Source: an archaeon
Lineage (GTDB): Archaea; Nanobdellota; Nanobdellia; Pacearchaeales; UBA284
Assembly: GCA_020343435.1 (NCBI GenBank)
Contig: CP070794.1
Location: 583,712 to 647,711, forward strand
Direction of reading: 5' to 3'
DNA: 64,000 bases
Shown: positions 38,864 to 58,343 of the stretch, in pieces
Layout of the letters: the number at the start of each line of letters is the position of its first letter
How positions within the stretch are numbered: the first letter of the stretch is position 1
Made by a program: the position numbers and the translations under genes
The notes under the pieces: model-generated
Databases searched by the model: none
What the model saw: only the letters and a program-made list of their open reading frames with translations
What the model was told of the DNA's origin: nothing

Positions 38864-38936
38864 TGGGCCTGGCTGGGATTGAACCAGCGACCTCCACCTT
38901 GTAAGGGTGGCGTCATAACCACTAGACCACAGGCCC
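38864..38936 (-). tRNA. tRNA-Val (anticodon UAC)
   Basis: Hand-folded cloverleaf: GGGCCTG/CAGGCCC acceptor, anticodon arm CCACC-CTTACAA-GGTGG and T-arm GCTGG-TTCAATC-CCAGC. It is 73 nt with no encoded CCA and no intron. Confidence 0.9.
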
Positions 38937-38959
38937 TCAAACTGAAGACAGCGTAAAAC

Positions 38960-38967
38960 TTTAAAAA
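38960..38967. promoter_or_regulatory. BRE/TATA-like box shared by tRNA-Val (minus) and the 38989 ORF (plus)
   Basis: On the minus strand 'GAAAGC-TTTTTAAA' ends 23 nt before tRNA nucleotide 1. The same A/T box read on the plus strand lies 21-22 nt before ATG 38989. Confidence 0.5.
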
Positions 38968-38988
38968 GCTTTCTTGCTCTTTTCAACC

Positions 38989-40818
38989 ATGCCAAAATCA
39001 AAGAAACAGGACATTCCAAATAATGCTTATAATGGAGTTATTCCCCAAAAAGCCCCAAATTTAAAGGACTTAGAACAACAAATTCCAGAAGAAGTTAAGA
39101 AAGAAATAGAAAAAACAAGGCAAAAATTACAACAAGTTAAAAAACAACTACTCAAAAAATTCTCTTATATTGATACTGTGAGTATTCTTCCTCCATGGGC
39201 TGCTAGAGACATTGAAGAAGATGAAAACATAGTAAAAGAAAATCCTAAAGAAAATTATGTTCATTTACTAATTCTTTTACCAGATGATAAATTTAAAGAA
39301 ATTAACAATGTTAAAGCAGAAGCTATAAAACTTGTTAAAGATTTTGCCCCAAAGATATGGGTTTCTGTAAGAACTCGTGCAAGTGTTTGGGATTGTTGTT
39401 TAGATGGAAAATACCCTTTAGTTGATGGTATTGCTTTATCTTTCCCTTTACATGATAAAGAAGGATTTTTAGCATCATTGAGATTAGCAACAATTCATAA
39501 AAGAATGTGTTTAGGTAAGTTTGAGAGATATGTAACAAGTTATGTTATTGCAGGATCTCTTGTAAGAGGAAATGCTAAGAAAACATCTGATGTTGATGTC
39601 TATATTGTTATTGATGATACTGATGTTAAAAGAATGTCTCGTTATGAACTAAGAGATAAATTAAGAGCAATTATCTGGAATTATGCTATCCAAGCTGGAG
39701 AAGAAGCTGGAATTAAAAACAAACTTAATGTTCAGATCTATATTTTAACTGATTTTTGGGAAGCTGTAAAAGATGCTCACCCAGTTATATTTACATTAAT
39801 CAGAGACGGAGTTCCACTTTTTGATAAAGGAGCATTCATGCCTTGGAAATTATTATTAAAGATGGGAAAAATTAAACCATCTCCTGAAGCAATTGATCTT
39901 TTCATGAGTATGGGTGAAAAAGTTTCTGAAAATGTTAAAAGAAAATTAACAGATATAGTATTAGAAGATATTTGGTGGGGAGTAATAACCCCAAGCCAAG
40001 CTGTTTTAATGTTATATGGGCTAGCTCCACCAACACACAAGGAAACTGCAAAAGTGATGAGAGATGTTTTAGTAAAAAAAGAAAAGTTACTAGAGGAAAA
40101 ATATGTTAAAATTTTAGAAAAAATTGTTAAAACTTACTCTACATATGAACACGATTTTGCTTATAGAGTCACAGGAAAACAAATTGATGAATTCTTAGCA
40201 GATGTTACAGATTATATTGCTAGATTAAAAAAATTAATGAAACAAATTGAAGAAAAAATAGCTGATAAAAATGTTAAAGAACAATTCAAACAAGTTTTAG
40301 ATTTAATTACCCATATAACTGGAAAAGTCCCTAAAACCAAAATAGCAGAGAAATTCAAAAAAGAATTAATAGATAAGAAAAAGATTGCACCAAGAAATCT
40401 AAGATTATTGCAAGAAATCAACGAAGTTGTTAAGAAAAGTATTGCTAAAAAAGCAACCAAACATGATTTAGCAAGATTAAGAAGATCAACTTATGAATTA
40501 TCTTCAGCATTATTAGAATATATTCAAAGAAAGGAGCATCTTGCTGTTCAAAAAAGTAAAACAGATATTGTTTATATCACAAAAGTAAATGGAAAGAATG
40601 TTAAAAAACAAGGACAATTATTTATATTCGACAAAGCAGCTTTTGTAATCCCCGATATTAATCAAAGCGAAATTAAAAAAATCGTTGGAAAATCAGTCAC
40701 AAACTCTGATCAAACAGAACTTAAGAAATATCTGGCAAAACCAACTTACAAAAAGATAACTCCAGAGTTGATTTCTGCTCTCAAAAACCTTTTTAAAGAG
40801 TTCGAGATTATCTTCTAA
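38989..40818 (+). CDS. Large Pol-beta-superfamily nucleotidyltransferase-domain protein with helical (HEPN-like) C-terminal region
   Basis: 'AGSLVRGNAKKTSDVDVYIVIDD' is the GS-x10-DxD NTase signature. Long helical/coiled-coil regions follow. The start is set at ATG 38989 (MPKSKKQ), not the non-ATG track start. Confidence 0.55.
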   Translation: MPKSKKQDIPNNAYNGVIPQKAPNLKDLEQQIPEEVKKEIEKTRQKLQQVKKQLLKKFSYIDTVSILPPWAARDIEEDENIVKENPKENYVHLLILLPDDKFKEINNVKAEAIKLVKDFAPKIWVSVRTRASVWDCCLDGKYPLVDGIALSFPLHDKEGFLASLRLATIHKRMCLGKFERYVTSYVIAGSLVRGNAKKTSDVDVYIVIDDTDVKRMSRYELRDKLRAIIWNYAIQAGEEAGIKNKLNVQIYILTDFWEAVKDAHPVIFTLIRDGVPLFDKGAFMPWKLLLKMGKIKPSPEAIDLFMSMGEKVSENVKRKLTDIVLEDIWWGVITPSQAVLMLYGLAPPTHKETAKVMRDVLVKKEKLLEEKYVKILEKIVKTYSTYEHDFAYRVTGKQIDEFLADVTDYIARLKKLMKQIEEKIADKNVKEQFKQVLDLITHITGKVPKTKIAEKFKKELIDKKKIAPRNLRLLQEINEVVKKSIAKKATKHDLARLRRSTYELSSALLEYIQRKEHLAVQKSKTDIVYITKVNGKNVKKQGQLFIFDKAAFVIPDINQSEIKKIVGKSVTNSDQTELKKYLAKPTYKKITPELISALKNLFKEFEIIF

Positions 40819-40819
40819 A

Positions 40820-41074
40820 ATGAAAGGAATAGTTAGATCTTTTAGATCAGGAAAAAAAACACAAAAGCCTAGGCACTTTATTATAGAGGTAGAAAGCGTA
40901 AAAGATTTGAAAAAAGCAAAGACTTTTGTGGGCAAAGAAGTAACTTGGAAATCTCCAAAAGGAAAGGAGATCAAAGGAAAGATCACATCTACCCATGGTC
41001 AATTTAAATTAAGAGCTGTTTTTAATCCTGGATTACCAGGGCAAGCAATAAACACAACTGTTGAAATAAAATGA
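40820..41074 (+). CDS. rpl35ae: Ribosomal protein eL33 (L35Ae)
   Basis: The 84-aa protein carries 'GKEVTWKSPKGKEIKGKITSTHG...RAVFNPGLPGQA', matching the L35Ae pattern. Confidence 0.8.
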   Translation: MKGIVRSFRSGKKTQKPRHFIIEVESVKDLKKAKTFVGKEVTWKSPKGKEIKGKITSTHGQFKLRAVFNPGLPGQAINTTVEIK

Positions 41075-41724
41075 AAATAAAACTATTAGTCCAAGCAGGA
41101 GCAATGAAACCAGGTCCAGCTCTAAGTCAAAAACTGGGTCCTTTGGGAGTAAATATGGGGAAAGTAATCTCCCAAGTTAATGCTGCAACTAAAGATAACA
41201 AAGGAATGAAAGTTCCTGTAATCCTTAATATTGATGGAAAAACCAAAAGTATCTCAACAGAGGTTTTAACACCTCCAGCAGCTGAATTATTGAAAAAAGA
41301 AATTGGAATCAAAAAAGCTTCTCCATTAGCTAGAAAATTAAAAGTAGCTAATATCCCCCTAGAAATGGTGATTAAAGTAGCTAAAATCAAAGAGAAAGAT
41401 ATGTTAGTTCATGGTTTAAAATCTGCTGTTAAAACTGTTCTAGGATCATGTGTTGCTTTGGGAGCATTAGTAGAAAGCAAAGAACCTTCTGAGATCATGG
41501 GAGAAGTTGATCAAGGAAAATTTGATGATATAATCAATAAAGGGTCTGAACAAGCTTCTCCTGAAAAGCTTAAGAAATTAGCTGAAGATTTTGAAGAAGT
41601 TAAGAAAGAACAAGTAAAAATAGAGAAAGAGATAGCTGAAAAGAAAGCTAAAGCAGAAGAAGCAAAAGCAGCTGGCTCAGAACCAGCAGCTGAAAAAAAA
41701 GAGGAGCCGAAACCTTCTAAATAA
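41071..41724 (+). CDS. rpl11: Ribosomal protein uL11 with about 60-aa charged C-terminal extension
   Basis: It carries 'VQAGAMKPGPALSQKLGPLGVNMGKV'. The extension is '...KEQVKIEKEIAEKKAKAEEAKAAGSEPAAEKKEEPKPSK'. Confidence 0.88.
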   Translation: MKIKLLVQAGAMKPGPALSQKLGPLGVNMGKVISQVNAATKDNKGMKVPVILNIDGKTKSISTEVLTPPAAELLKKEIGIKKASPLARKLKVANIPLEMVIKVAKIKEKDMLVHGLKSAVKTVLGSCVALGALVESKEPSEIMGEVDQGKFDDIINKGSEQASPEKLKKLAEDFEEVKKEQVKIEKEIAEKKAKAEEAKAAGSEPAAEKKEEPKPSK

Positions 41725-41726
41725 AC

Positions 41727-41734
41727 CTTTTAAA
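41727..41734 (+). promoter_or_regulatory. TATA-like box for tRNA-Pro
   Basis: 'CTTTTAAA' ends 23 nt before tRNA nucleotide 1. Confidence 0.45.
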
Positions 41735-41757
41735 CCAATAATCCTTTAATTTTCTAC

Positions 41758-41832
41758 GGGGCTGTGGTGTAGCTTGGTCTAGCATTTAAGGTTTGGGACC
41801 TTACGACCCCGGTTCAAATCCGGGCAGCCCCA
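41758..41832 (+). tRNA. tRNA-Pro (anticodon UGG)
   Basis: Hand-folded: GGGGCTG/CAGCCCC acceptor, anticodon arm TAAGG-TTTGGGA-CCTTA and T-arm CCCGG-TTCAAAT-CCGGG. It is 75 nt with no CCA. Confidence 0.9.
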
Positions 41833-41841
41833 TGTTGAAAA

Positions 41842-42453
41842 ATGCCAGTATTAATCAATTTCAAGATTTGCGATAATGCAAAAGAATGTGGAGGAATCAC
41901 AGCTTGCAAAAGCGGAGCTATCTACTGGGACAAGGAAAAGAAAACAATTGCTATAGATAACTCAAAATGCACCGGATGTGGTGAATGTGTTAAAGAATGC
42001 CCTGTTGGAGCTATTAGATTAGCTAAAACAGATGAAGAATATGAAAGAATTAAGAAAGAAATAGAAGAAGATCCAAGAAAAACATCTGACTTATTTGTAG
42101 ATAGATATGGAGCACAACCAATTCACGATTACTACTTAACAACTAGTGAGAATTTTGATTCTGAAGTTGTACAATCAAATAAACTAACCGTGGCAGAATT
42201 ATTCAACGATGATTCTATACAATGTTTATTAGACTCAATTCCAATCAAAGATCTATTTGAAGGAATAGATATTAAGTACAAAAAAGTAGAATTAAAAGAT
42301 AATTCTTTGCTAGAAAAATATGAAATTAAAGAACTTCCATCCCTATTATTTTTCAAAGATGGCAAGCTCTTAGGCAGAATAGAAGGGTACAAAGAAACTA
42401 AAGATAAAGAGGCTGTTAAACAAGAAATCAAGGAAATTACATCTAAATCCTAA
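41842..42453 (+). CDS. 4Fe-4S ferredoxin-domain / thioredoxin-fold fusion protein
   Basis: The N-terminus has 'CTGCGECVKECPVGAI' plus additional Cys residues. The C-terminal 'ELPSLLFFKDGKLLGRIEG' is a thioredoxin-fold signature, but no CxxC is present. Confidence 0.55.
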   Translation: MPVLINFKICDNAKECGGITACKSGAIYWDKEKKTIAIDNSKCTGCGECVKECPVGAIRLAKTDEEYERIKKEIEEDPRKTSDLFVDRYGAQPIHDYYLTTSENFDSEVVQSNKLTVAELFNDDSIQCLLDSIPIKDLFEGIDIKYKKVELKDNSLLEKYEIKELPSLLFFKDGKLLGRIEGYKETKDKEAVKQEIKEITSKS

Positions 42454-42484
42454 CCTTTATAAACTATCTTTTGATCAAGACAAC

Positions 42485-42703
42485 ATGGCAAGGACAAAAA
42501 AGACAAAATCAACAGGCCGATTCGGTCCAAGATATGGTGTAAGAGTAAAAGGAAGATTAAAGGCAATAGAATCAAAACAAAGAAAAACTCAAAAATGCCC
42601 TTTCTGTAAGAAAAAAACAGTAAAAAGATTAGCAAAAGGAATATGGTCTTGTAACTCATGCAAAAGAAAATTCACAGGAGATGCTTATTTCCTAAACATT
42701 TAA
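42485..42703 (+). CDS. rpl37ae: Ribosomal protein eL43 (L37Ae)
   Basis: It carries 'GRFGPRYGVRVK' and a zinc ribbon 'CPFCKKK...CNSCKRKFTG'. Confidence 0.9.
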   Translation: MARTKKTKSTGRFGPRYGVRVKGRLKAIESKQRKTQKCPFCKKKTVKRLAKGIWSCNSCKRKFTGDAYFLNI

Positions 42704-42727
42704 AAAATTTAAACAGATAATTAAAAA

Positions 42728-42865
42728 ATGGTTGTATACAAATGCTTTTTTTGTGGAAAACAAATCTCAGATAAAGTCCTAAAAACAAGGTTTTCTTGTC
42801 CATATTGTGGTGCAAAGGTTTTCTTCAAACCAAGAAAAGCAATTAAAAAGGTAAAAGCAATTTAA
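42728..42865 (+). CDS. rpoP: DNA-directed RNA polymerase subunit P (Rpo12/RpoP)
   Basis: This 45-aa ORF is below the track cutoff: MVVYKCFFCGKQISDKVLKTRFSCPYCGAKVFFKPRKAIKKVKAI. It has a CxxC...CxxC zinc ribbon and sits in the conserved eL43-RpoP-prefoldin beta neighbourhood. Confidence 0.8.
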   Translation: MVVYKCFFCGKQISDKVLKTRFSCPYCGAKVFFKPRKAIKKVKAI

Positions 42866-42866
42866 A

Positions 42867-43199
42867 ATGACAATTCAAAATCCTATGGAACAACTACAAC
42901 TTGCTGAACAAAACATGCAAAATATCACATTGCAAAAACAAGTATTCCAAATGGAGCTAGTTGAGACAAATAATGCACTAGAAGAACTAAAAAATGTGAA
43001 AAATGAGGAAGTTTTCAAAGTTGTTGGTTCAGTTATGGTTAAAACAGATAAAAAAAAGGTTACAGAAGACTTAAAAAAGAAGTCTCAAGTCCTAGATTTG
43101 AGGATGAAGGCTCTAGAAAAGCAAGAAGAAGATCTAAAACAAAAAATTATCAAGATAAGGTCGGAAATATTGAAGAAAACAAAGGTTGAAAAAAAGTAA
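42867..43199 (+). CDS. pfdB: Prefoldin beta subunit
   Basis: The 110-aa protein has two coiled coils flanking a single hairpin (VFKVVGSVMVKTDK). Confidence 0.75.
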   Translation: MTIQNPMEQLQLAEQNMQNITLQKQVFQMELVETNNALEELKNVKNEEVFKVVGSVMVKTDKKKVTEDLKKKSQVLDLRMKALEKQEEDLKQKIIKIRSEILKKTKVEKK

Positions 43200-43239
43200 C
43201 AAAAAGTTTATAAAGTGGGAGGGATTAAGACAATTTAAG

Positions 43240-43611
43240 ATGCCATTTTTCAAAAAAATTTTCGGATCAGAAAAGACACCAGAGACAGCTGAATATATTG
43301 AAATAGAGACTGGAAGAGACACAAAAAAAGGCAAAATTATATTAAAACCATTTGTTCTTAAAACATTTGAAGACACTAGCAAAGTATTAGATATCTTAAG
43401 AGAAGGATATGCTATAGCTTTGATTGATATCAAACCTTTGAAAAACAAGGATGTTGTTGAACTTAAAAGAGCAATAGCAAAACTCAAGAAAACAGTAGAT
43501 GCTTTAGAAGGAAGCATAGCTGGTTTTGGAGATAATGTTATTGTAGCAACACCTTCTTTTGTAGAGATCTCACGTGGTGGACCAATTCCAGCACCAAAAG
43601 AAGAGAAATAA
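43240..43611 (+). CDS. sepF: Cell-division protein SepF homologue (DUF552)
   Basis: The N-terminal 'MPFFKKIFG' is an amphipathic membrane-targeting-like peptide. The core is 'LKTFEDTSKVLDILREGYAIALIDIKPL...ALEGSIAGFGDNVIVATP'. The start is set at ATG 43240. Confidence 0.7.
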   Translation: MPFFKKIFGSEKTPETAEYIEIETGRDTKKGKIILKPFVLKTFEDTSKVLDILREGYAIALIDIKPLKNKDVVELKRAIAKLKKTVDALEGSIAGFGDNVIVATPSFVEISRGGPIPAPKEEK

Positions 43612-43615
43612 GCAG

Positions 43616-44278
43616 ATGAAAGTTCTTTTTGTCCCTACACAGAGCAATGTTTCTATCTCAGATTCTATTATTCAGAAAATATCTAGAAAACTTCCTAAAA
43701 AAATAGGGATTATATCTACAATTCAATTCTCCTACTTGATTAATCAATTTAGATCTGTTTTGAGAAGAGAAGGAAAATCTGTTTTTGTAGACAAAAAAGG
43801 ATTAATTCTTGGTTGTGATGTTAAATCAGGACTAACTTTACAAAATAAAGTAGATGTTTATCTTTACATTGGTTCTGGTAGGTTTCATACTCTTGCTTTG
43901 GCATTAGAATTGAAAAATCAAAAACCAATATTCATCTTTAATCCTTCAACACTGGATTTTTATGAATTTAATTGGGATGAAGTTAAAAAAATTAAACAAA
44001 AACAAAAAGCAGCTCATGTTAAATTCTTATCAGAAGATAAAATTGGGATTATTGTATCTACAAAATCAGGACAAAATAATTTATCAGAAGCTTTTAATCT
44101 AAAAAAACAATTTGAAAAAAAGAAAAAGAAATCTTATATCTTTTTAACAGATAATTTTGACCTTAATCAACTAGAAAACTTTCCAGAAATTAAGTCATGG
44201 GTTAACACAGCTTGCCCAGGTTTATCTCGAGAAAATCCCTCTTTAATCTTAGACTTTAGAAACATTAAAAAAGGGTGA
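43616..44278 (+). CDS. dph2: Dph2-like 2-(3-amino-3-carboxypropyl)histidine synthase, N-terminally short form
   Basis: It carries 'LGCDV', 'YIGSGRFHTLALA', 'KIGIIVSTKSGQ' and 'VNTACPGLS'. It aligns to roughly the C-terminal two thirds of archaeal Dph2 (about 340 aa). The start is at ATG 43616. Confidence 0.65.
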   Translation: MKVLFVPTQSNVSISDSIIQKISRKLPKKIGIISTIQFSYLINQFRSVLRREGKSVFVDKKGLILGCDVKSGLTLQNKVDVYLYIGSGRFHTLALALELKNQKPIFIFNPSTLDFYEFNWDEVKKIKQKQKAAHVKFLSEDKIGIIVSTKSGQNNLSEAFNLKKQFEKKKKKSYIFLTDNFDLNQLENFPEIKSWVNTACPGLSRENPSLILDFRNIKKG

Positions 44279-44293
44279 TCTTTTCTTTCATAG

Positions 44294-45169
44294 ATGCCTA
44301 AGAAGTCTGATAAGAAACTTAAGGAAAAAATCAAAAAGGCTGATGTATCACGGTCTGGAGGAATCTTTTATAGAACTGAAAGAAAAATAATTGAAAACTG
44401 GGTGAAAAAATTTCCCTTATTCTTAACTCCAGATAGATTAACTGCAATCTCTATTATTTCTGCTGCATTAATTGGTCTATGTTTTTATCTAACAAATTTT
44501 AGCAAAATTTGGCTCCTATTTGTTTGTTTATTTCTATTCACCAATTGGATTGGGGATAGTTTTGACGGAGAAGTTGCAAGATACAGAAAGATTCAGAGAC
44601 CAAGATATGGTTATTATATAGATCATGTTTTAGACGCTTTTGTATTTGTATTCATGATTGTGGGATTGGGATTATCTCCTTATCTGAGTATGACTCTTGC
44701 TTTAGCTTTAGTTATATGTTTCTTACTACTCAATGTTATGACTTCTATAGCAGCATATACTCAAGCAAGTTATAGAATTGGATATGGTGGATTAGGAGGG
44801 ACAGAAGGAAGGATAGTATTCTTTGTATTTAGTTTAATTCTATTCTTTTTCATACCTGCGAGTGGAACCATCTTTTTCCTAGGAGCTACAGCATTCACTT
44901 TCCTAGATCTTATAGCTCTCATATGTCTGGGACTCTTCACTTACATGATCATCATAGGATTTGTTGTTAATATTAGACACTTTAATAAAGTCGATAAGAA
45001 AACATATAAGGAAATGACTATAGCTGAAGCTTTTGATAAATTAGAGTTCATACAAAACTTGAGGAAAAGTGATGTTGGAAAATTCCTGAGTGGAGAATAT
45101 ATAGAACAAGAAATTAAGAAATTTACAGATAGTTTCAATGGAACCCCTCCTAAAAAGAAGAAATCTTAA
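44294..45169 (+). CDS. CDP-alcohol phosphatidyltransferase family protein (copy 1)
   Basis: It carries 'DSFDGEVARY...GYYIDHVLD' (a DGxxAR...GxxxDxxxD-type motif) and is a polytopic membrane protein. Confidence 0.75.
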   Translation: MPKKSDKKLKEKIKKADVSRSGGIFYRTERKIIENWVKKFPLFLTPDRLTAISIISAALIGLCFYLTNFSKIWLLFVCLFLFTNWIGDSFDGEVARYRKIQRPRYGYYIDHVLDAFVFVFMIVGLGLSPYLSMTLALALVICFLLLNVMTSIAAYTQASYRIGYGGLGGTEGRIVFFVFSLILFFFIPASGTIFFLGATAFTFLDLIALICLGLFTYMIIIGFVVNIRHFNKVDKKTYKEMTIAEAFDKLEFIQNLRKSDVGKFLSGEYIEQEIKKFTDSFNGTPPKKKKS

Positions 45170-45180
45170 TTTTCAAGAAG

Positions 45181-45888
45181 ATGTATAAAATAGAAAACAA
45201 GATTGATGATAGTATAACAAGAAAATTAAAAGATAAACTTAAAAAAAAGTGGACTCCAAAACTAGCAAATGTCTTTTCTCCAAATTTTTTGAGTATTCTT
45301 GGATTAATTTCTTCAGTATTTGCTGGCTTATGTTTCTATTTAACTCAATTTAGTGAATATTGGCTTTTCGGTGCAGCTGCAGCAATTCTTATCAATTGTT
45401 TTGCAGATGAATTTGATGGAGAAGTGGCTAGATATAAAAAAGAAGCAACTGGCCATGGATTTTTTACAGATAGGATGTTCGATCAATTAGGATTCTTTTT
45501 GGTTATGTTAGGATTAGGATTATCCCCCCTAATGCAACTTCCTTTAGCGCTCCTATTAGTTGTTGTTTACTTCATAATATCTATGAATGTTTTTTTAATG
45601 GCTTATGCTACAGGGAAGTTTAGAATAGCTTATGGAAAATTTGGGCCAGTGGAACTTAGGTTAGGTTTTGTTATCTATTGTATATGCACTCCTTTTTCCA
45701 AATATATCTATCCATATGTTCTTTCAGAAGGAAAATTTTTAGGTATTACCCCAATAACTTCCTTTGATCTTATTGCGTTGATTGGAATAGCAATTTTCGC
45801 ATTAATTGCTATTTTTACAATTGTAGAGAACTTTACTTATTTATTTAAAGTCAGGAAAAAAATTCTTTTTAAAAGTCAGGTGAAATAG
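45181..45888 (+). CDS. CDP-alcohol phosphatidyltransferase family protein (copy 2, tandem paralogue)
   Basis: 'DEFDGEVARYKKEATGHGFFTDRMFD' is a perfect DGx2ARx8Gx3Dx3D motif. The topology is similar to copy 1. Confidence 0.78.
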   Translation: MYKIENKIDDSITRKLKDKLKKKWTPKLANVFSPNFLSILGLISSVFAGLCFYLTQFSEYWLFGAAAAILINCFADEFDGEVARYKKEATGHGFFTDRMFDQLGFFLVMLGLGLSPLMQLPLALLLVVVYFIISMNVFLMAYATGKFRIAYGKFGPVELRLGFVIYCICTPFSKYIYPYVLSEGKFLGITPITSFDLIALIGIAIFALIAIFTIVENFTYLFKVRKKILFKSQVK

Positions 45889-45891
45889 AAA

Positions 45892-45972
45892 CGCCCGGAC
45901 CAGGAATCGAACCTGGATGCCCCGGAGGGCACGGCTTTCCAGGCCGTTGCGATACCATTACGCGACCCGGGC
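45892..45972 (-). tRNA. tRNA-Ser (anticodon GGA), class II with long variable arm
   Basis: Hand-folded: GCCCGGG/TCCGGGC acceptor, anticodon arm ACGGC-CTGGAAA-GCCGT, a 14-nt variable arm and T-arm CCAGG-TTCGATT-CCTGG. It is 81 nt. Confidence 0.85.
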
Positions 45973-45995
45973 ATAAATTTTACAGTCTTATACAA

Positions 45996-46013
45996 GTTAA
46001 AAAGCTTTTTAAA
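45996..46013. promoter_or_regulatory. Palindromic bidirectional BRE/TATA element (tRNA-Ser and 46035 ORF)
   Basis: A perfect 16-bp palindrome TTAAAAAGCTTTTTAA spans 45997-46012. Minus-strand 'TTTTTAAC' ends 23 nt before the tRNA-Ser 5' end. Plus-strand 'TTTTTAAA' ends 21 nt before ATG 46035. Confidence 0.5.
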
Positions 46014-46034: not shown

Positions 46035-46571
46035 ATGAAAAAAGAGGTCAAACAAGCAAAACCAAAAAGAAAGATTAAAGCTTGGTTGATGGTAGTGATT
46101 ATAATAATTATCTTAATCTTATCATTCTATTTTATAATTTTAAACCCAGCAGTTAGTAAACCAGAATTAGAAAAACCAGCATTATTAAATGAAATGGTTA
46201 ATGGAACGCTTGTACAATTAGATCATACTCACTTAACCTACATCTTAACAGAATTAGGGTACTATAAAATCCATAAAAATCCATTAAATGGAGAAGTTCC
46301 TTTACTAACAATAAGAATGTCTGATCTTAACAAAGAATTTAACTTTACAACAAATAGGGGAAGAGTTATTCATGTTCCTACTTCCAGTGCTCTTCAAGAT
46401 GTAATTCTAACATCTGACCAAGAAACAATGGTTGGTATATATGAATCAGAAGATGTGATTCAAGCAACTAAAAATAAGATCAATGAAGGTAAGTTTGCTG
46501 CAGCAGTTCTTAAGGAGACTACAGATTTAACAATGAAAGGTTATATGACTGTCTATAATTCTTTATCTTAA
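46035..46571 (+). CDS. Hypothetical N-terminally membrane-anchored protein
   Basis: A basic N-terminus and a single TM helix (AWLMVVIIIIILILSFYFIIL) precede an extracytoplasmic domain. I recognise no family. Confidence 0.5.
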   Translation: MKKEVKQAKPKRKIKAWLMVVIIIIILILSFYFIILNPAVSKPELEKPALLNEMVNGTLVQLDHTHLTYILTELGYYKIHKNPLNGEVPLLTIRMSDLNKEFNFTTNRGRVIHVPTSSALQDVILTSDQETMVGIYESEDVIQATKNKINEGKFAAAVLKETTDLTMKGYMTVYNSLS

Positions 46572-49924: not shown

Positions 49925-49964
49925 ATTATTATTTCTAAAGTAGTAACATTTTTCAGGATATAAG

Positions 49965-49972
49965 GTTTTAAA
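49965..49972 (+). promoter_or_regulatory. TATA-like box for tRNA-Arg
   Basis: 'GTTTTAAA' ends 21 nt before the tRNA 5' end. This is 2 nt closer than at the other tRNAs, and there is no AAAGC-type BRE. Confidence 0.35.
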
Positions 49973-49993
49973 ATCAAGATACTTATCCTTTTT

Positions 49994-50065
49994 GCCTCTG
50001 TAGTTCAACGGATAGAACACGCGGCTACGGACCGTGAGATCTGGGTTCAAATCCTAGTAGGGGCA
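49994..50065 (+). tRNA. tRNA-Arg (anticodon ACG)
   Basis: Hand-folded: GCCTCTG/TAGGGGC acceptor (with G-U pairs), D-arm GTTC-AACGGATA-GAAC, anticodon arm CGCGG-CTACGGA-CCGTG and T-arm CTGGG-TTCAAAT-CCTAG. It is 72 nt. Position 34 is A. Confidence 0.8.
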
Positions 50066-51164: not shown

Positions 51165-51237
51165 TGGCTGTGGCGGGAGTTGAACCCGCGACATCTGCCT
51201 TATGAGAGCAGCACTCTAACCACTGAGTTACACAGCC
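51165..51237 (-). tRNA. tRNA with CAU anticodon (elongator Met or Ile2)
   Basis: Hand-folded: GGCTGTG/CACAGCC acceptor, anticodon arm CTGCT-CTCATAA-GGCAG and T-arm GCGGG-TTCAACT-CCCGC. It is 73 nt. It lacks the initiator features (A1:U72 and three G:C pairs in the anticodon stem). Confidence 0.85.
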
Positions 51238-51260: not shown

Positions 51261-51268
51261 TTTAAAAA
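51261..51268 (-). promoter_or_regulatory. TATA-like box for tRNA(CAU)
   Basis: Minus-strand 'TTTTTAAA' ends 23 nt before tRNA nucleotide 1. Confidence 0.45.
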
Positions 51269-51306
51269 CTTATCATTTAAAAAAAGAAAAGAAAAAGAAA
51301 TAAAAT

Positions 51307-51616: not shown

Positions 51617-51799
51617 TTAGCATTTCTTCTTTAATCTTGTCACATAACCAGCAATCTTATTCCTAGTTTTTTTATCAGATCCCATAATATCTTTTAGAAT
51701 CTTCTTTGTTTTTTCAAAATCTTTGTCAAAAACTTCTGGCTTTTCTTCTACCAGTTTTCTAGCTTTTCTCTTGATTGCTGTTGACTTAATTCGTCCCAT
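51617..51799 (-). CDS. rps17e: Ribosomal protein eS17
   Basis: It carries 'MGRIKSTAIKRKARKLVEE...NKIAGYVTRL'. The start is set at ATG 51799. Confidence 0.85.
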   Translation of the reverse strand: MGRIKSTAIKRKARKLVEEKPEVFDKDFEKTKKILKDIMGSDKKTRNKIAGYVTRLKKKC

Positions 51800-52391
51800 T
51801 TTTACTCTTGTATCTCCCTCTTGTCTCAACTTTTTTCAGTTGTTTTAACACGTTTTCATTACCTTTTCTGTATGTTTTTATTACTTCTTTTAAGTAGTTT
51901 TGCCAGCTTTTAAAATGTTTCGATTTCAAAGCTTGAGCTAACAAATATAAGTCCACAGCTTTATCTTCTACCCTCGCTGAATGAAATCCTAAACCAAAAT
52001 CTATGAAATAAACTTTCCTGTTTCTCAGAATCATATTACTAGTAGTTAAGTCTCCATGAATTATGTTATTTTTATGTAAGATTGCCAGATTTTTCCCTAT
52101 TTCTTTACAAATTCTGAAAGCTTCTGTTTTAGGTAATTTATCTAACCATTCACTTAGTTTTTTTCCAGATAAAAATTCCATTTCTATCTGAAATTCTGAT
52201 GTTTTTTTGATTTTTGGGACATCAACCATCTTAGAAGTCTTCTCTAATAATCGAGATTCTCTCTTTGTTCTTCTTTTTCTTAGCATTAAATCTAGATTTT
52301 TATGTCTATAACCCTTTTTTATTCTATCCTTAATCAAAGAATTCCCTTTTCTAATCAGAATTGCTTCAGCTCCTTGTGCTATGATTTTCAT
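51786..52391 (-). CDS. bud32: KEOPS complex kinase/ATPase Bud32 (PRPK, RIO-like)
   Basis: This 201-aa mini-kinase carries 'GAEAIL', 'HGDLTTSNMIL' and 'YFIDFGLG'. Confidence 0.8.
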   Translation of the reverse strand: MKIIAQGAEAILIRKGNSLIKDRIKKGYRHKNLDLMLRKRRTKRESRLLEKTSKMVDVPKIKKTSEFQIEMEFLSGKKLSEWLDKLPKTEAFRICKEIGKNLAILHKNNIIHGDLTTSNMILRNRKVYFIDFGLGFHSARVEDKAVDLYLLAQALKSKHFKSWQNYLKEVIKTYRKGNENVLKQLKKVETRGRYKSKNGTN

Positions 52392-52441
52392 TTTAGAACG
52401 TATGCTGCAAAACTTATAAATTTTAACTTCTAATCTTAACT

Positions 52442-53266
52442 ATGAAAATTCCATGTAAGAACAGAATTTTCTTAGCTCCAATGGCTGAGATTAATGACAT
52501 AGCATTTAGATTATTATGTAAAAAAGCTGGCTGTGGATTAACTTATACTGGAATGATTACTCCATTAACAAAACAGAAATGGGAAATGGATGATAAACCA
52601 GCACTACAATTATTCTCTACATCAACAAGAGGGGTAAAAGAATTCATAAAAAAATATGAAAATAAAGTAACTTTATTTGACTATAACCTTGGATGTCCAG
52701 CACCAACAGCTAGAAAACAAAGGTTCGGATATTTTATACAATCTAAACTAAAAACTATTGAAAAAATTCTACAAATAATGAGGAAATCAACTAAAAAACC
52801 AATAACAATTAAACTAAGAAAATCAAAATATGCATTAAAAATAGCTAAAATAGCAGAAAAATACGTTGATGCAATTGGAATCCATCCAAGAAAAGCTAAT
52901 CAAGGTTATTCTGGAACTCCTGATCTAGATTTTGCTTTGAAATTAAAGAAATCTGTTAAAGTTCCTATAATCTATTCAGGAAATGTTAATGAAACAAACT
53001 ATAAATCTCTATTAAAAAAATTTGATTATATAATGATTGGAAGGAGAGCTATAGGAGATCCAAACATCTTCGCTAAATTAACTAAGAAGAAATCTAATTT
53101 GGGATTCAAAGATTATCTTAAACTAGCTAAAAAATACAAATTCTCTTTTACAAGACTAAAAAGGCAAGCAATTTCATTTACAAAAAGAAGAGCTGGAGCA
53201 AAAAAACTAAGATTAAAGTTAATAAAAACAAAAAATATCAAAGAAATAGAAAAAATTAATGTTTAA
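52442..53266 (+). CDS. tRNA-dihydrouridine synthase (Dus family TIM barrel)
   Basis: It carries 'IFLAPMAEINDIAFRLLCKKAG', 'DYNLGCPA' and 'IGRRAIGDP'. Confidence 0.75.
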   Translation: MKIPCKNRIFLAPMAEINDIAFRLLCKKAGCGLTYTGMITPLTKQKWEMDDKPALQLFSTSTRGVKEFIKKYENKVTLFDYNLGCPAPTARKQRFGYFIQSKLKTIEKILQIMRKSTKKPITIKLRKSKYALKIAKIAEKYVDAIGIHPRKANQGYSGTPDLDFALKLKKSVKVPIIYSGNVNETNYKSLLKKFDYIMIGRRAIGDPNIFAKLTKKKSNLGFKDYLKLAKKYKFSFTRLKRQAISFTKRRAGAKKLRLKLIKTKNIKEIEKINV

Positions 53267-53846
53267 ACAGAGGACAATCAACAACTTCTGTTTCAGCTTC
53301 TCCTCCCTCAAATCTTAGATCAAATCTGAACTTCTCACTTAACTTCTTTAATCCTTCCAAGTTTTCATCATCAATAATTCTTCCAACCCAGGAATTATCT
53401 AATCCATCTGCAGCAACTTTAACGATTCTTACCTTAAAATTATTAGAAATTAATTTTTTCCAATATTCTTCTGCACTTATCCTCCAAATAGGATTAAAAC
53501 ATTTTAATTTTAATTTATCACAAATCTTCTGAATTCTTAATTTTTGGTAATTGGAAGCAACAGCACCAGTTACAATTCCATCAATTTTGAATTTTTCTTT
53601 AGCATTTTGAATAGCTTTTTCTAAATCAACAAGTTCTTCTTCTTTTTCACCTTTAGTTTTCTGAAAAATAATCGGCAAACCAATTTTTTTAGCAATTTTT
53701 TCTATTTTATCTTTAGAAACTTGTTGAAACATATAACTATCAGGATTTTCAGAAAGAATTGAAATCAAACAAACTAATTCTTTTTTATATAAGAATCCAG
53801 AATAAGTAGAATCTTTCCCTCCTGAAAATAAAACTCCTAATTTCAT
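53256..53846 (-). CDS. Diphthine-ammonia ligase-like ATP pyrophosphatase (Dph6/MJ0570 family)
   Basis: 'MKLGVLFSGGKDSTYS' is a PP-loop (SGGKDS). The start is set at ATG 53846, next to the proS stop. Confidence 0.7.
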   Translation of the reverse strand: MKLGVLFSGGKDSTYSGFLYKKELVCLISILSENPDSYMFQQVSKDKIEKIAKKIGLPIIFQKTKGEKEEELVDLEKAIQNAKEKFKIDGIVTGAVASNYQKLRIQKICDKLKLKCFNPIWRISAEEYWKKLISNNFKVRIVKVAADGLDNSWVGRIIDDENLEGLKKLSEKFRFDLRFEGGEAETEVVDCPLFKH

Positions 53847-53847
53847 C

Positions 53848-55266
53848 TTAATAACTCTTAGCAATATAAACTACAGAATTAGATTTTTTACCACAATAAC
53901 AACATTTTCCTTTAGGTTTTTCATTAATCTTACAAATAATCTTTGCTCCACCAGTTTTTGTTTTTATCCAATCTTCACATTTCTGATTTCCGCACCATTC
54001 TGTTTTCACTAATTTCTTGTTTTTAATACTTTTAACAACATCAGATATATTTTTAGCAAGAACAGTGTTGTTTTTCAGATGTCTTTTAGCTTTATTATAG
54101 AGATTATTATGAATATCCTCTAAAACTTTCTCAACTTTTTTAGCAACATCTTTAATCTTAACAAATTCTTTTTTTCCAGTATCTCTTCTAACTAGAACAA
54201 CTTGTTTTAACTTAATGTCTTTAGGTCCTAATTCTAATCTTATTGGAATTCCTTTCATTTCCCAGTCATTGAATTTGAAACCAGGACTAACATCTCTATC
54301 ATCAATCTCAACTCTAACTTTACCTAACTTAATCTTTTTAGCTTCAGAAACAACTTGTTTCTTATCTTTTTTGTAAATAGGAACAATTACAACTTGAGTT
54401 TCAGCGACTTTTGGAGAAACCACTAATCCTTTGCTATCAGAATGCATCATTATTGCAATTCCAATACTTCTAGCTGATAATCCCCAAGAATTCTGCCATA
54501 CATATCTCTCTTTTCCATTTTCATCTTTAAACTTAATATCAAAAGCTTTTGCAAAGTTTTGTCCAAGATTATGAGATGTTCCAGCCTGAGCACATTTTCT
54601 AGAAGGTAAAAAAACTTCTGTAGTTAATGTCTTATCTGCACCTGCAAATTTTTCTTTATCTGTTTTAACTCCTTTAATTACAGGAATTGCAAATATATCT
54701 TTGTAAACATCAACATAATAATCCAATATTTTTTCAACTTCTTGGATAGCTTCTTTTTCAGTTGCAAAAGCAGAATGTCCCTCTTGCCATAAGAATTCTC
54801 TAAATCTAATCAAAGGAATAGGATTCTTAAATTCCCACCTAACAACATTATTCCACTGGTTTAATCTTAATGGTAAATCTCTCCATGATCTTATCCATTT
54901 AGCATAAGCAGGATACATACTACTTTCAGAAGTTGGTCTAATCGCTAACCTTTCTTTTAATTTTGTGTTCCCTGTTTGAGTGACCCAAGCAACTTCAGGA
55001 TTAAATCCTTCAACATGCTCTTTTTCTTTTGCTAAATTAGATTCTGAAACTAATAAAGGAAAATAAGCATTCTTCACACCATCTTTTTTTATCTTATCAT
55101 CAAAATACTTCATAACTTGTTCCCATATAAAATAACATCTTGGTCTAAGAATATAACATCCAGAGACATTAGAGTATTCAATTAGTTCTGCTTTTTGAAT
55201 TAACTGAACAAACCATTCTGAAAATTCATCTTTTTCAGCTGTTATTCCTATCTCCTTCTTTTTCAT
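53848..55266 (-). CDS. proS: Prolyl-tRNA synthetase (archaeal/eukaryotic type)
   Basis: It has class II motifs ('FRPRCYFIWE'-like 'ILRPRCYFIWEQ' and 'RWEFKNPIPLIRFREFLWQEGH'), the anticodon-binding domain and a C-terminal Zn-binding domain ending '...YIAKSY'. Confidence 0.92.
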   Translation of the reverse strand: MKKKEIGITAEKDEFSEWFVQLIQKAELIEYSNVSGCYILRPRCYFIWEQVMKYFDDKIKKDGVKNAYFPLLVSESNLAKEKEHVEGFNPEVAWVTQTGNTKLKERLAIRPTSESSMYPAYAKWIRSWRDLPLRLNQWNNVVRWEFKNPIPLIRFREFLWQEGHSAFATEKEAIQEVEKILDYYVDVYKDIFAIPVIKGVKTDKEKFAGADKTLTTEVFLPSRKCAQAGTSHNLGQNFAKAFDIKFKDENGKERYVWQNSWGLSARSIGIAIMMHSDSKGLVVSPKVAETQVVIVPIYKKDKKQVVSEAKKIKLGKVRVEIDDRDVSPGFKFNDWEMKGIPIRLELGPKDIKLKQVVLVRRDTGKKEFVKIKDVAKKVEKVLEDIHNNLYNKAKRHLKNNTVLAKNISDVVKSIKNKKLVKTEWCGNQKCEDWIKTKTGGAKIICKINEKPKGKCCYCGKKSNSVVYIAKSY

Positions 55267-55347
55267 AAAATACTAAAGATTAATCAATTTTTAAATTTAT
55301 TCAAGAGACACAAAAAGTCTTATAAACAAAAGAATTCTTATAAAATA

Positions 55348-55908
55348 ATGATTGAAAAAGAGCATACATTAAGAGTTCTAAAAAAGACAATCAAAACTTT
55401 GAAAGCAAGAGATATGACTATGTTAAGGACATTATCTAATCAAACAATTCACACAGCTTCTGTTTATCAAGATCCCGATGCAATTGCATTAGCTGTTACT
55501 ATTTATGCTTTAAGTAAGATTGTTGAAAGAGAAAATTACAGACATTATCCTGATTGGAAACCTTTCATAAAATCTTGTTTAAGTTATTTGGATAAAACAA
55601 TCACTTATCTGGAAAAAGGGGATATGAAAAGATTCAGGAATAATTTAATGGGCATTAGAGGAGAAATAGAAAATATTAGTTCTAAACTTAAAGAGTATAT
55701 CAAAGAAGTTTTTAGAAAAGCTGCTATTAGTAAAGCTTCTAGAATATATGAACATGGAATTTCAAGAGCAGAAACAGCAAAACTTCTAGGAATAACTCAA
55801 TGGGAATTAGCAGAATATGTTGGAAGAACTGGAATTGCAGATATTCGTCTAAGTGTCACAAGAACTGTTAGAGACAGAATTAAACTAGCACAATCTTTAT
55901 TCAAATGA
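55348..55908 (+). CDS. Hypothetical protein with C-terminal helix-turn-helix
   Basis: 'ISRAETAKLLGITQWELAEYVGR' is HTH-like. It has a 4-nt ATGA overlap with the downstream PIN-like gene. Confidence 0.45.
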   Translation: MIEKEHTLRVLKKTIKTLKARDMTMLRTLSNQTIHTASVYQDPDAIALAVTIYALSKIVERENYRHYPDWKPFIKSCLSYLDKTITYLEKGDMKRFRNNLMGIRGEIENISSKLKEYIKEVFRKAAISKASRIYEHGISRAETAKLLGITQWELAEYVGRTGIADIRLSVTRTVRDRIKLAQSLFK

Positions 55909-56555
55909 AAGCCTTATTCTTTGACTCATCTTCAATAATCTCTTTAGCATTAAATGATCTTCTATACATTTTAGAACCTTTAAAAAAAGAATTCAAGGGA
56001 GAATTTTATATTACCCCAGATATAAAAGCAGAAGTTATAGATTACTCACTGAACACTAAAAGATTCATGTTAGAAGCACTTATGGTAAAAAAATTAATTG
56101 ATAAGGGAATTCTGAAAATCTACAACAAGAAATTTAATTTCAGGAAATTTTTAGATATGGCAAATAAAACTTTTAAAGCAGATGGAAAATTTATTAATCT
56201 TTTACATAGGGGAGAAGCATCTTGTATTGCAGCATATAGAAGTTTTAATGAACAAAAGAAAGCAATTGTTATTGATGAACGAACCACTAGAATGCTATGT
56301 GAAGCACCAGATAAATTAAAAGATCTTTTAGAAAAGAAATTATCTAAAAAAATACAACCAGTTAAAGATAATTTTAAATTTTTTAAAGATATTAACATAA
56401 TACGATCAAGTGAATTGGCTTTCTTAGCTCTGAATAAGAAAATTCTTGAGTTTCAAGCAACCAAAACTAAAGTTAGAGAAGCTTTACTTTATGCATTAAA
56501 GTTCAAGGGATGTGCTATCTCCACCCAAGAGATTAACGAAGCAATAAAAATCTAA
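55905..56555 (+). CDS. PIN-like domain protein (putative nuclease)
   Basis: The acidic residues follow the PIN pattern: 'FFDSSSII' (D), 'HRGEASCIA' (E) and 'VIDERTT' (D). At 216 aa it is larger than a typical VapC. Confidence 0.45.
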   Translation: MKALFFDSSSIISLALNDLLYILEPLKKEFKGEFYITPDIKAEVIDYSLNTKRFMLEALMVKKLIDKGILKIYNKKFNFRKFLDMANKTFKADGKFINLLHRGEASCIAAYRSFNEQKKAIVIDERTTRMLCEAPDKLKDLLEKKLSKKIQPVKDNFKFFKDINIIRSSELAFLALNKKILEFQATKTKVREALLYALKFKGCAISTQEINEAIKI

Positions 56556-56589
56556 AAACATTTTTAAATTACCAATTCTTATTTTAAAC

Positions 56590-57042
56590 ATGGTAAGAAG
56601 AACCAGAAGAAAAAAGAGGAGAACTACTAGAAAACGAAGAAAGACAGTAAAACCAGCACCAGTTAAAAGAAGAGCATTTACATCAACACAGAGGCATGTA
56701 AACCCAGTTACAGAGGTTCATGTCTTAGGAATTGCAGGAGGAATAGTAACATTGCTTGCAGGGATTCTGTGGTTGCTAGGAAGTCTTTTTTCATGGAGTT
56801 TAGAAGCATTTACATGGTTTAGTTTCGGAGATCTAGGGTTGATAAATATTGCTTGCGGTTTAATCCTTTTACTTTCAGCAGCAACTTTAAAGAAAAATTT
56901 CTTAGGAGTGGGTTTGGTATTATTAATATTTTCAATAATAGCAATAATAGCACCACCAGGAGGATTTGTTGTTGGTCCAATCTTAGGATTGATTGGGGGT
57001 ATAATCGCTTTAGTAAAGTCTGCTAACCCTTCATTCAGATAA
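56590..57042 (+). CDS. Hypothetical membrane protein with poly-Arg/Lys N-terminus
   Basis: 'MVRRTRRKKRRTTRKRRKTVKPAPVKRR' is followed by 3-4 Gly-rich TM helices. Confidence 0.5.
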   Translation: MVRRTRRKKRRTTRKRRKTVKPAPVKRRAFTSTQRHVNPVTEVHVLGIAGGIVTLLAGILWLLGSLFSWSLEAFTWFSFGDLGLINIACGLILLLSAATLKKNFLGVGLVLLIFSIIAIIAPPGGFVVGPILGLIGGIIALVKSANPSFR

Positions 57043-58225
57043 GAGTTAACTGCTTTGATGTGAGAAATCTCTCTTTTCCAGTTTTCATATCCCTTAGTTT
57101 AAACTTTTTCTTTTTTATTTCTTCAGAACCAATGAAAACAACATAAGGGATCTTTTCTTTATTTGCATATTCTAAAGCTTTTGAGATTTTATCCATAATA
57201 AAACAAGAAATATTATTTTTTCTTAATTCTTTTACAATTTTAATAGATTCTTTATCCTGATTTATTGATATTACAATACATTTAACTCTATCACTATCAA
57301 CTTTAGCTATTCCAGTTATCCTATCTAAACCAAAAGACAAACCAACAGCAGGAATCTGTTTATTTAATAATCTTCCAACAGAATCATCAAATCTTCCTCC
57401 ACCAACTAATGAGAATTTGTATTGTTTTGAATTTATTTCAAAAACATTTCCAGTGTAATAACTTAAACCCCTTGCTAAAGAAGCATCAAATTCAACATTA
57501 AATCCATAATCTTTACATAATTTTATTAATTCTTTTACTTCATCTGAACCTTTGAATTCCTCTTCTGTAAAAAAACTTAAATCTTTTTTAATGAAATCTA
57601 AAATTTTCTTAGCTTTCTTATTCCCAGTTACTGAAGAAATATTTTTTTCAATTTCTTGTCTTGTTAACTTATCCAGTTTATCTAATTCTCTCAAAACTTT
57701 TTCTTTATCTGAAATCCCAAATCTTGTTAATAAATCATCTAATAATTTTTTGTTATTAATTCTAATTTTAACTTCAATTTTTAATTCTTTGAAAATATCA
57801 TTAACAACTGCCAAAACTTCAGCATCAGCTTTTATTGAAGAATCACCAATAATATCAATATCACATTGTGTAAATTCTCTATATCTTCCTTTAGCAACAG
57901 GTTCATCTCTAAAAACAGAACCAATCTGATATCTCCTAAAAGGCAATTTTAAATTAGGGTTTTGTTTCAACAATCTTGCTAATTGAAAAGTAAACTCATA
58001 TCTTAAAGCTAGGGCTCTTTTTCCTCTATCTTTTAACTTGAAAATATTACTTACAGCTTCATCTTGTAAATTATCCCCTTTTACAATCTTTTCATACTCA
58101 ATTATTGGGGTCTCAATAGGGCTAAAGCCATATAATCTAAACCATTTTTCAATGATCTCTTTAACCTTAATTCTCTTTAGTGCTTCAACACCAAGAATAT
58201 CTCTAAAACCCTTTACAGATTCCAT
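57035..58225 (-). CDS. hisS: Histidyl-tRNA synthetase
   Basis: It carries 'VKGFRDILG', 'RYEFTFQLAR', 'FRDEPVAKGRYREFTQCDIDIIG' and 'GGGRFD'. Confidence 0.92.
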   Translation of the reverse strand: MESVKGFRDILGVEALKRIKVKEIIEKWFRLYGFSPIETPIIEYEKIVKGDNLQDEAVSNIFKLKDRGKRALALRYEFTFQLARLLKQNPNLKLPFRRYQIGSVFRDEPVAKGRYREFTQCDIDIIGDSSIKADAEVLAVVNDIFKELKIEVKIRINNKKLLDDLLTRFGISDKEKVLRELDKLDKLTRQEIEKNISSVTGNKKAKKILDFIKKDLSFFTEEEFKGSDEVKELIKLCKDYGFNVEFDASLARGLSYYTGNVFEINSKQYKFSLVGGGRFDDSVGRLLNKQIPAVGLSFGLDRITGIAKVDSDRVKCIVISINQDKESIKIVKELRKNNISCFIMDKISKALEYANKEKIPYVVFIGSEEIKKKKFKLRDMKTGKERFLTSKQLTLI

Positions 58226-58239
58226 TCTCTTTTGAAAAG

Positions 58240-58311
58240 GGCGGTAACCGGGAATTGAACCCAGGCCTCACGGACCACAACCGTACGCGCTACCATTACG
58301 CTATTACCGCC
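58240..58311 (-). tRNA. tRNA-His (anticodon GUG) with genome-encoded G-1
   Basis: Hand-folded: G(-1) plus GCGGTAA/TTACCGC acceptor with C73 opposite G-1, anticodon arm TACGG-TTGTGGT-CCGTG and T-arm CTGGG-TTCAATT-CCCGG. It lies 14 nt upstream of hisS on the same strand. Confidence 0.85.
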
Positions 58312-58335
58312 ATATTTAACTTCAAATTCTTGAGA

Positions 58336-58343
58336 ATTAAAAA
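58336..58343 (-). promoter_or_regulatory. TATA-like box for tRNA-His (and possibly hisS)
   Basis: Minus-strand 'TTTTTAAT' ends 24 nt before G-1. Confidence 0.4.

Follow-up and report, generated by a model that had tools for sequence, protein, structure and literature searches.

Do the transfer RNA (tRNA) genes of a small-genome archaeon start their transcripts exactly at the mature 5' end, and thus dispense with ribonuclease P (RNase P), or do ordinary promoters provide the tRNA precursors with very short leaders? The question is raised by a 64-kb stretch of contig CP070794.1 (hereafter the window, i.e., the whole stretch of DNA that was analysed), in which six tRNA genes located between 38.8 and 58.3 kb are each preceded by an A/T-rich box at a near-constant distance. 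This arrangement was read, in an original prediction made from the letters of the DNA, as leaderless tRNA transcription of the type described for Nanoarchaeum equitans. The analysis reported here rather suggests, with a probability of about 0.65, that the six tRNA precursors carry leaders of about 2 nt issued from ordinary archaeal promoters, with tRNA-Arg as an exception.

The window represents 64 kb of a 648-kb contig, i.e., about 10% of the genome, with six tRNAs visible. It has a G+C content of 31% and contains the archaeal S10-spc operon, with ribosomal proteins that include L19e, L32e and S4e, together with SecY and AglB. With HisRS and L3 as queries, the next-best named homologues of the window proteins are 60–67% identical and belong to Pacearchaeota, Woesearchaeota or Nanoarchaeota; on sequence evidence, the host is an archaeon of the DPANN group, similar to Pacearchaeota. 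Relatives from the same broad clade consist of 80 loci around L3, taken from GTDB genomes, and 80 loci around hisS, taken from metagenomes, which total 1.96 Mb.

Promoter elements of the six tRNA genes

The six tRNA genes were agreed upon by ARAGORN and Rfam, and their mature 5' ends were placed by means of the acceptor stems, 7 bp long and positioned from the T-loop. The starts predicted by the calibration on messenger RNAs (mRNAs) described below are given with each gene:

38864–38936, minus strand: tRNA-Val(UAC), G1 of the mature tRNA at 38936, start predicted on G 38938 with GA as the 2-nt leader
41758–41832, plus strand: tRNA-Pro(UGG), G1 at 41758, predicted start at 41757 (C)
45892–45972, minus strand: tRNA-Ser(GGA), G1 of the mature tRNA at 45972, start predicted on A 45974 with AU as the 2-nt leader
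49994–50065, plus strand: tRNA-Arg(ACG), G1 at 49994, which is the sole purine within 5 nt of the predicted start
51165–51237, minus strand: elongator-type tRNA with a CAU anticodon, G1 at 51237, start predicted on A 51239 with AA as the 2-nt leader
58240–58311, minus strand: tRNA-His(GUG), G1 at 58310, encoded G-1 at 58311, predicted start at 58314 (T)

A seventh call of ARAGORN, a tRNA-Gln antisense to tRNA-Pro, was discarded as a spurious artefact.

The 8-bp A/T boxes and their spacing are direct observations, and re-measurement gave exactly the distances originally proposed: 23 nt between the box and the mature end for tRNA-Val (TTTTTAAA), tRNA-Pro (CTTTTAAA), tRNA-Ser (TTTTTAAC) and the CAU tRNA (TTTTTAAA), 24 nt up to the G-1 of tRNA-His (TTTTTAAT), and 21 nt for tRNA-Arg (GTTTTAAA). 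Counted from the first T of the box, the mature end is reached after 31 nt in tRNA-Val, tRNA-Ser and the CAU tRNA, 30 nt in tRNA-Pro, 32 nt in tRNA-His (to G-1) and 28 nt in tRNA-Arg. The motif TTTTAA, which has a frequency of 0.0021 per strand position in the window, starts at -31 to -28 in all six tRNAs, an outcome expected by chance at about (4 × 0.0021)^6, i.e., ~3e-13.

The sequence AAAGC, said to precede the box often, occurs exactly in front of the tRNA-Val and tRNA-Ser boxes only, the other four boxes being preceded by AAACC, TAAGG, ATAAG and AAAGG. What the six tRNA boxes have in common is an A-rich transcription factor B recognition element (BRE) in which AA precedes the first T by 3–4 nt, a register shared with mRNA promoters. 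Leaving aside the promoters of tRNA-Val and tRNA-Ser, described below with their divergent partners, these elements are distributed as follows:

41723–41735, plus strand: BRE AAACC and TATA element TTTTAAAC of tRNA-Pro, first T 30 nt before G1
49961–49973, plus strand: BRE TAAGG and TATA element TTTTAAAA of tRNA-Arg, first T 28 nt before G1
51261–51273, minus strand: TATA element TTTTTAAA (51261–51268) and BRE ATAAG of the CAU tRNA, first T 31 nt before G1
58336–58348, minus strand: TATA element TTTTTAAT (58336–58343) and BRE AAAGG of tRNA-His, first T 32 nt before G-1

A step from T to a purine occurs at -3/-2 in five of the six tRNAs, namely Val, Ser, CAU, Pro and His (relative to G-1 for the latter). 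The A-rich BRE, the 8-bp T/A box and the pyrimidine-purine step at the start that characterize a core promoter are thus all found, and the six boxes are, as far as their sequence tells, archaeal BRE/TATA promoters, one per tRNA gene. It is also true, as pointed out originally, that a G occupies the 5' end of all six tRNAs, but the same holds for 103 of 108 tRNAs of the clade, so that the G start is uninformative about a reading without RNase P; the tRNA that would be telling in this regard, tRNA-Tyr, lies outside the window.

Calibration of the start by leaderless mRNAs

The protein genes of the window and of its relatives provide a direct calibration of the distance between a box and the transcription start. 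Thirteen window genes have a TTTATA, TTTAAA or TTTTTAA box whose first T occupies precisely position -29 relative to the A of the ATG, and two of these genes share the T5 box of the tRNAs. Over the 160 related loci, the three boxes peak at the same position (105, 70 and 23 occurrences, respectively, over backgrounds of ~5–15). Counted over all fetched loci with the window included, 198 genes have their box at -29; among them, a pyrimidine occupies position -1 in 71%, as compared to 25% of other genes, and an A is found three and four nt before the box in 88% and 75%, respectively, as expected for the BRE. Owing to this enrichment in pyrimidines at -1 and to the A residues of the BRE, the start is assigned to the A of the ATG, in a fixed register. 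Judged by these signals, leaderless mRNAs are the rule in this genome and in its clade, and their start codon lies at the start defined by the promoter.

In this respect, the original prediction of leaderless mRNAs is supported, both by the 13 window genes and by the 198 genes counted clade-wide. The spacing of 21–25 nt that it noticed before start codons is real, but the rule is sharper than stated since the 13 genes all have their first T at -29; among its six examples, the genes starting at 38989, 46035 and 49894 have the first T at -29, the gene starting at 13478 at -31, and those starting at 4742 and 58561 at -32. The step by which a box at -31 to -24 was taken to place the start at nucleotide +1 does not hold, because leaderless mRNAs put their box at -29 to -22, i.e., about 2 nt off.

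An RNase P RNA gene found in a related locus (L117, see below) possesses its own TATA box with the first T located 29 nt before the 5' G, and therefore serves as an independent check on this 29-nt ruler. The choice of the anchor matters: measured from the first A following the T-run, tRNA ends and ATGs alike lie at -26, and the window seems to differ from its relatives. This anchor creates an artefact, since T5AA and TTTATAA boxes share their register by the first T and the BRE; once aligned on the first T, the tRNA spacing of the window is the modal spacing of the clade. The resulting clade-wide rule, according to which the first T of the TATA element plus 29 gives the start, and hence the A of the ATG, may be of use for the annotation of starts and small RNAs in these uncultured genomes.

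Divergent promoters shared with protein genes

Two of the tRNA genes share their upstream region with a protein gene transcribed in the opposite direction, which allows the same DNA to be read towards a tRNA on one side and towards an ATG on the other:

38955–38972, both strands: bidirectional core promoter of tRNA-Val and of the gene starting at 38989, made of one 8-bp TATA element with a BRE on each side
45996–46013, both strands: back-to-back divergent promoters of tRNA-Ser and of the gene starting at 46035, with the palindrome TTAAAAAGCTTTTTAA

In the first of them, the TATA element (38960–38967) reads TTTAAAAA on the plus strand and TTTTTAAA on the minus strand, and is flanked by the BREs AAAAC (38955–38959, plus side) and AAAGC (38968–38972, minus side). 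From this element, 29 nt lead to the ATG at 38989 on the plus strand, and 29 nt lead on the minus strand to position 38938, i.e., the G(-2) of tRNA-Val, which is preceded by a T. In the second one, the 16-bp palindrome TTAAAAAGCTTTTTAA extends from 45997 to 46012 and each of its A-runs doubles as the BRE of the opposite promoter, the TATA element of tRNA-Ser being TTTTTAAC (45996–46003, minus strand) and that of the protein gene TTTTTAAA (46006–46013, plus strand). Here also, 29 nt separate the promoter from the ATG at 46035 on one side and from position 45974 on the other, which corresponds to the A(-2) of tRNA-Ser and is again preceded by a T. Moreover, an identical 13-mer, AAAGCTTTTTAAA, is located 21 nt from the ATG at 46035, yet 23 nt from the G1 of both tRNA-Val and tRNA-Ser. 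The equal 29-nt arms of the two divergent promoters therefore point to a tRNA start at -2, facing a start on the ATG in the opposite direction.

Depending on the tRNA, the predicted start is more or less easily assigned. For tRNA-Pro, it is likely to be either A 41756, at a TA step that would give a 2-nt leader, or G1 itself. For tRNA-His, the start is likely to be A 58313, again at a TA step, with a leader AU before G-1. In contrast to the other five, tRNA-Arg is probably truly leaderless, as judged from G1 being the sole purine close to its predicted start. The original proposal that transcription starts at or within 1–2 nt of the mature end thus stands in so far as the predicted starts fall within about 2 nt of it, but coincidence with nucleotide 1 is predicted for tRNA-Arg only.

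Two further features of these tRNA genes deserve mention. The anticodon of tRNA-Arg, the sole window tRNA with a different promoter spacing, is ACG; to our knowledge, Archaea normally lack tRNAs with A34, as well as the deaminase that makes inosine, and an ACG anticodon is unusual among them. The Arg tRNAs present in the fetched loci of relatives have CCU and UCG anticodons only. In addition, none of the six genes encodes the 3' CCA, and a CCA-adding enzyme and processing of the 3' trailer are therefore needed.

Starts of tRNA genes in related genomes

The related loci yielded 102 non-redundant tRNAs, 61 of which possess one unambiguous box. When calibrated on the mRNAs, the start of these 61 tRNAs is placed at -2 in 21 cases, at -1 in seven, at +1 in two and at -3 to -12 in 29. 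At the predicted start, a pyrimidine-purine step is directly observed in 36 of 50 tRNAs, as compared to 5–15 of 50 at positions shifted by 1–5 nt. The signal persists when the predicted leader measures at least 3 nt, with 19 of 29 tRNAs at the predicted start versus 3–8 of 29 at shifted positions. That the initiator tracks the box argues against a constant start on G1, because such a start would give the signal no reason to follow the box.

The picture that emerges is that of an ordinary archaeal core promoter in front of each tRNA gene, made of an A-rich BRE, an 8-bp TATA element and a pyrimidine-purine initiator. Binding of the TATA-binding protein and transcription factor B would fix the start 29 nt past the first T of the box, i.e., on the A of the ATG for protein genes and on a purine about 2 nt before the mature 5' end for tRNA genes. 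Under this scheme, the predicted leaders would be GA for tRNA-Val, AU for tRNA-Ser, AA for the CAU tRNA, probably AC for tRNA-Pro and AU before the G-1 of tRNA-His, with none for tRNA-Arg. These ultrashort 5' leaders would then be cut off by a 5'-processing enzyme, most likely an RNase P encoded outside the window. Both the actual tRNA start sites and the presence of RNase P in this genome are predictions in this scheme.

RNase P in the clade

A conserved place for Rpp29 is located in the ribosomal protein operon of the window:

31732–32341, minus strand: SUI1 (32048–32341) followed by S17 (31732–32043), Rpp29 slot empty

In archaea, the slot between SUI1 and S17 normally holds Rpp29/RNP1 (PMC10833476). 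In the window, the two genes are separated by a gap of 4 nt; the empty slot is not specific to this genome, as 64 of 65 relatives lack the gene there too. The sole exception is found in locus L004, where a 64-aa open reading frame (ORF; 15152–15346, plus strand) located between SUI1 and S17 matches PF01868 with 45.6 bits (cut-off 27). This mini-Rpp29 has only two further word-sharing homologues among 5.8 billion proteins, and a tblastn search of the window and of the 79 remaining loci of the L3 set (L001–L080) revealed no homologue of it. Such a pattern suggests that, within the clade, this subunit of RNase P has been reduced or repeatedly lost.

The RNA subunit was recovered from locus L117 as a full-length archaeal RNase P RNA of 298 nt (10420–10717, plus strand; RF00373, 78.4 bits, E 3e-20), which contains GAGGAAAGUCC and ACAGAAGAUGGCUUA. 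This RNA was the only true match of a motif search of the 1.96 Mb of loci, another match in L131 being false according to Rfam, and nhmmer with the L117 RNA detected no further copy in the related loci. Since its score of 78.4 bits stays below the Rfam gathering score of 84, the RNase P RNA of this clade is missed by annotation at that threshold, and the statement that it is not annotated in a given genome means little; this should be taken as a warning for annotation. These components are observed directly in the relatives, and on their testimony the clade has RNase P, the protein set of which is possibly reduced, a hint that the protein content of the enzyme is being trimmed in this lineage.

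Two side observations relate to these regions. In L117, a tRNA-like gene (10784–10890, plus strand) occurs about 70 nt 3' of the RNase P RNA; it matches the Rfam model over positions 5–66 only and displays an apparent insertion after the first bases of the acceptor stem. In the window, L37ae and prefoldin beta adjoin each other (42485–43199, plus strand), with tRNA-Pro and a ferredoxin-thioredoxin gene upstream. Many archaea have exosome, proteasome and Rpp30/Pop5 genes near L37ae and prefoldin beta, and these genes are absent from that neighbourhood of the window.

Comparison with known systems

In N. equitans, the tRNA promoter is located 26–27 nt upstream and the start at +1, or at -1 for tRNA-His, tRNA-Tyr and the initiator tRNA-Met; this organism has no RNase P and its tRNAs carry 5'-triphosphates (Randau et al. 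2008, via PMC3491384 and PMC10100707). The window resembles it in several respects: every tRNA gene comes with a box A/TATA promoter of its own, set a short and near-invariant distance away, tRNA-His has an encoded G-1, the small genome falls within a DPANN lineage of the symbiont type, and genes are fused downstream of tRNAs, their 5' ends being such as RNase Z would generate. The window differs by a box located about 2 nt too far upstream according to its own mRNA standard and by an initiator step at -2. Its tRNA-His is not split and its CCA is not encoded, whereas the tRNA-His of N. equitans is described as being made with a CCA end; in addition, relatives of the window have RNase P RNA and Rpp29.

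Haloferax volcanii, in which 72% of mRNAs are leaderless, offers another term of comparison, since it has RNase P and yet starts transcription near the mature 5' end in 39 of 52 tRNA genes (PMC4983044). The likeness extends to the A-rich BRE, the 8-bp TATA element centred near -26, the pyrimidine(-1)/purine(+1) step, the ATG located at the start and the tRNA starts close to the mature ends. Unlike Haloferax, the clade of the window displays an unusually uniform spacing, exactly 29 nt in hundreds of genes, and a modal tRNA leader of 2 nt. With regard to the enzyme itself, RNP-type proteins have been reported in all archaeal genomes surveyed, and HARP is reported to be absent from DPANN (PMC6380272). 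In the literature searched, leaderless tRNAs came up for no organism other than N. equitans, and nothing specific emerged for DPANN, Pacearchaeota or Woesearchaeota, either on such tRNAs or on RNase P.

Weighing of the alternative explanations

Several observations weigh against 2-nt leaders removed by RNase P. In four of the six window tRNAs, G1 is preceded by a pyrimidine, and the choice of the start in archaea can move by 1–2 nt towards a favoured purine, so that a start on G1 is possible. The counts drawn from the relatives are not fully independent, many of their tRNAs being orthologous tRNA-Ser and tRNA-His genes. Within the 64-kb window, no RNase P RNA is detected at the Rfam gathering scores or at E≤5, no Rpp21, Rpp29, Rpp30, Pop5 or HARP domain is found among the ORFs, and the operon slot conserved for Rpp29 does not contain this gene. 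The observations on the start would be accommodated by a mixed situation, rather unlikely in our view, in which RNase P is present for other substrates and the initiator context pulls the starts to G1, leaving most of the six tRNAs leaderless. A pyrimidine-G1 step does occur in tRNA-Pro, tRNA-Ser, tRNA-Arg and tRNA-His (G-1), G1 being the sole purine available in tRNA-Arg, and archaeal starts reportedly tolerate distances of 22–27 bp from the TATA element, according to in vitro work on the Methanococcus tRNA-Val promoter. Against it stand the extremely sharp mRNA spacing of the clade, which points to little flexibility, and the initiator step of the relatives, which follows the box-defined position even 3–12 nt upstream of the tRNA.

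The reading favoured originally, in which RNase P has been lost as in Nanoarchaeum, transcription starts exactly at G1 (G-1 for tRNA-His) and the mature tRNAs are primary transcripts with a 5'-triphosphate, draws on the one promoter per tRNA at a near-fixed distance, on the G found at every 5' end, on the small 648-kb contig and on the window without RNase P RNA (E≤5) or RNase P protein and with an empty Rpp29 slot, to which may be added the reported absence of HARP from DPANN (PMC6380272) and the box A located 26–27 nt upstream of the N. equitans tRNAs (PMC10100707, PMC3491384). It nevertheless appears improbable: the internal calibration and the initiator step put the start 2 nt upstream for most window tRNAs, and the window spacing equals that found in relatives, a clade in which RNase P RNA and Rpp29 occur. 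The empty slot is shared with 64 of 65 relatives, the part of the genome seen amounts to about 10%, and the Rfam threshold misses the RNA of the clade. An equally doubtful extension of this reading holds that the genome, and perhaps much of the clade, has lost or drastically reduced RNase P, the tRNA 5' ends being produced either by precise promoter placement, with a start on G1 in spite of the 2-nt offset, or by another activity that trims a uniform 2-nt leader. It is suggested by the Rpp29 slot empty in 64 of 65 relatives, by the sole copy of 64 aa and by an RNA scoring below the Rfam threshold. If true, it would add a second case, independent and mesophilic, of organisms living without canonical RNase P, and a reading without the enzyme would extend the exception of one hyperthermophile, N. 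equitans, to a DPANN lineage widespread in groundwater and sediment. As for the idea that the boxes are mere chance features of AT-rich intergenic DNA, it can appeal to the 31% G+C of the genome but retains a negligible probability in view of the six boxes out of six falling within a 4-nt window (~3e-13), of their shared BRE register and of their fit to the profile of the 198 mRNA promoters. Standard promoters giving leaders of about 2 nt, which the evidence favours, are by comparison unremarkable.

Genes located downstream of the tRNAs

Some of the tRNA genes are closely followed by a protein gene on the same strand. The tRNA-His gene is located 14 nt upstream of hisS (57035–58225, minus strand), with no room for a promoter in between, and this pairing is conserved with gaps of 6–34 nt in about 13 of 22 relatives (loci L089–L154). 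Cleavage by RNase Z would create the 5' end of the hisS mRNA. Similarly, tRNA-Pro is followed 9 nt further by a ferredoxin-thioredoxin fusion gene (Fer4-thioredoxin; 41842–42453, plus strand), and tRNA-Val is followed 8 nt further by an ORF of 219 aa devoid of any Pfam match (38196–38855, minus strand); by their arrangement, both look like further tRNA-mRNA co-transcripts. Co-transcripts of this kind, processed by RNase Z, are known from N. equitans, with tRNA-Val-sRNA8 (PMC3491384), and from Thermococcus kodakarensis, where tRNA-Lys lies in the 5' untranslated region (UTR) of TK0306 (PMC4247193). The same-strand genes located 8–14 nt after tRNA-His, tRNA-Pro and tRNA-Val, without promoter room, resemble them. 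They differ in that the partners are protein genes, one of them being the cognate synthetase gene hisS.

Finally, an ORF of more than 1,813 aa without any Pfam match (58561–64000, plus strand) runs off the end of the window; the first T of its promoter box lies at -32, which predicts a 5' UTR of 3 nt.

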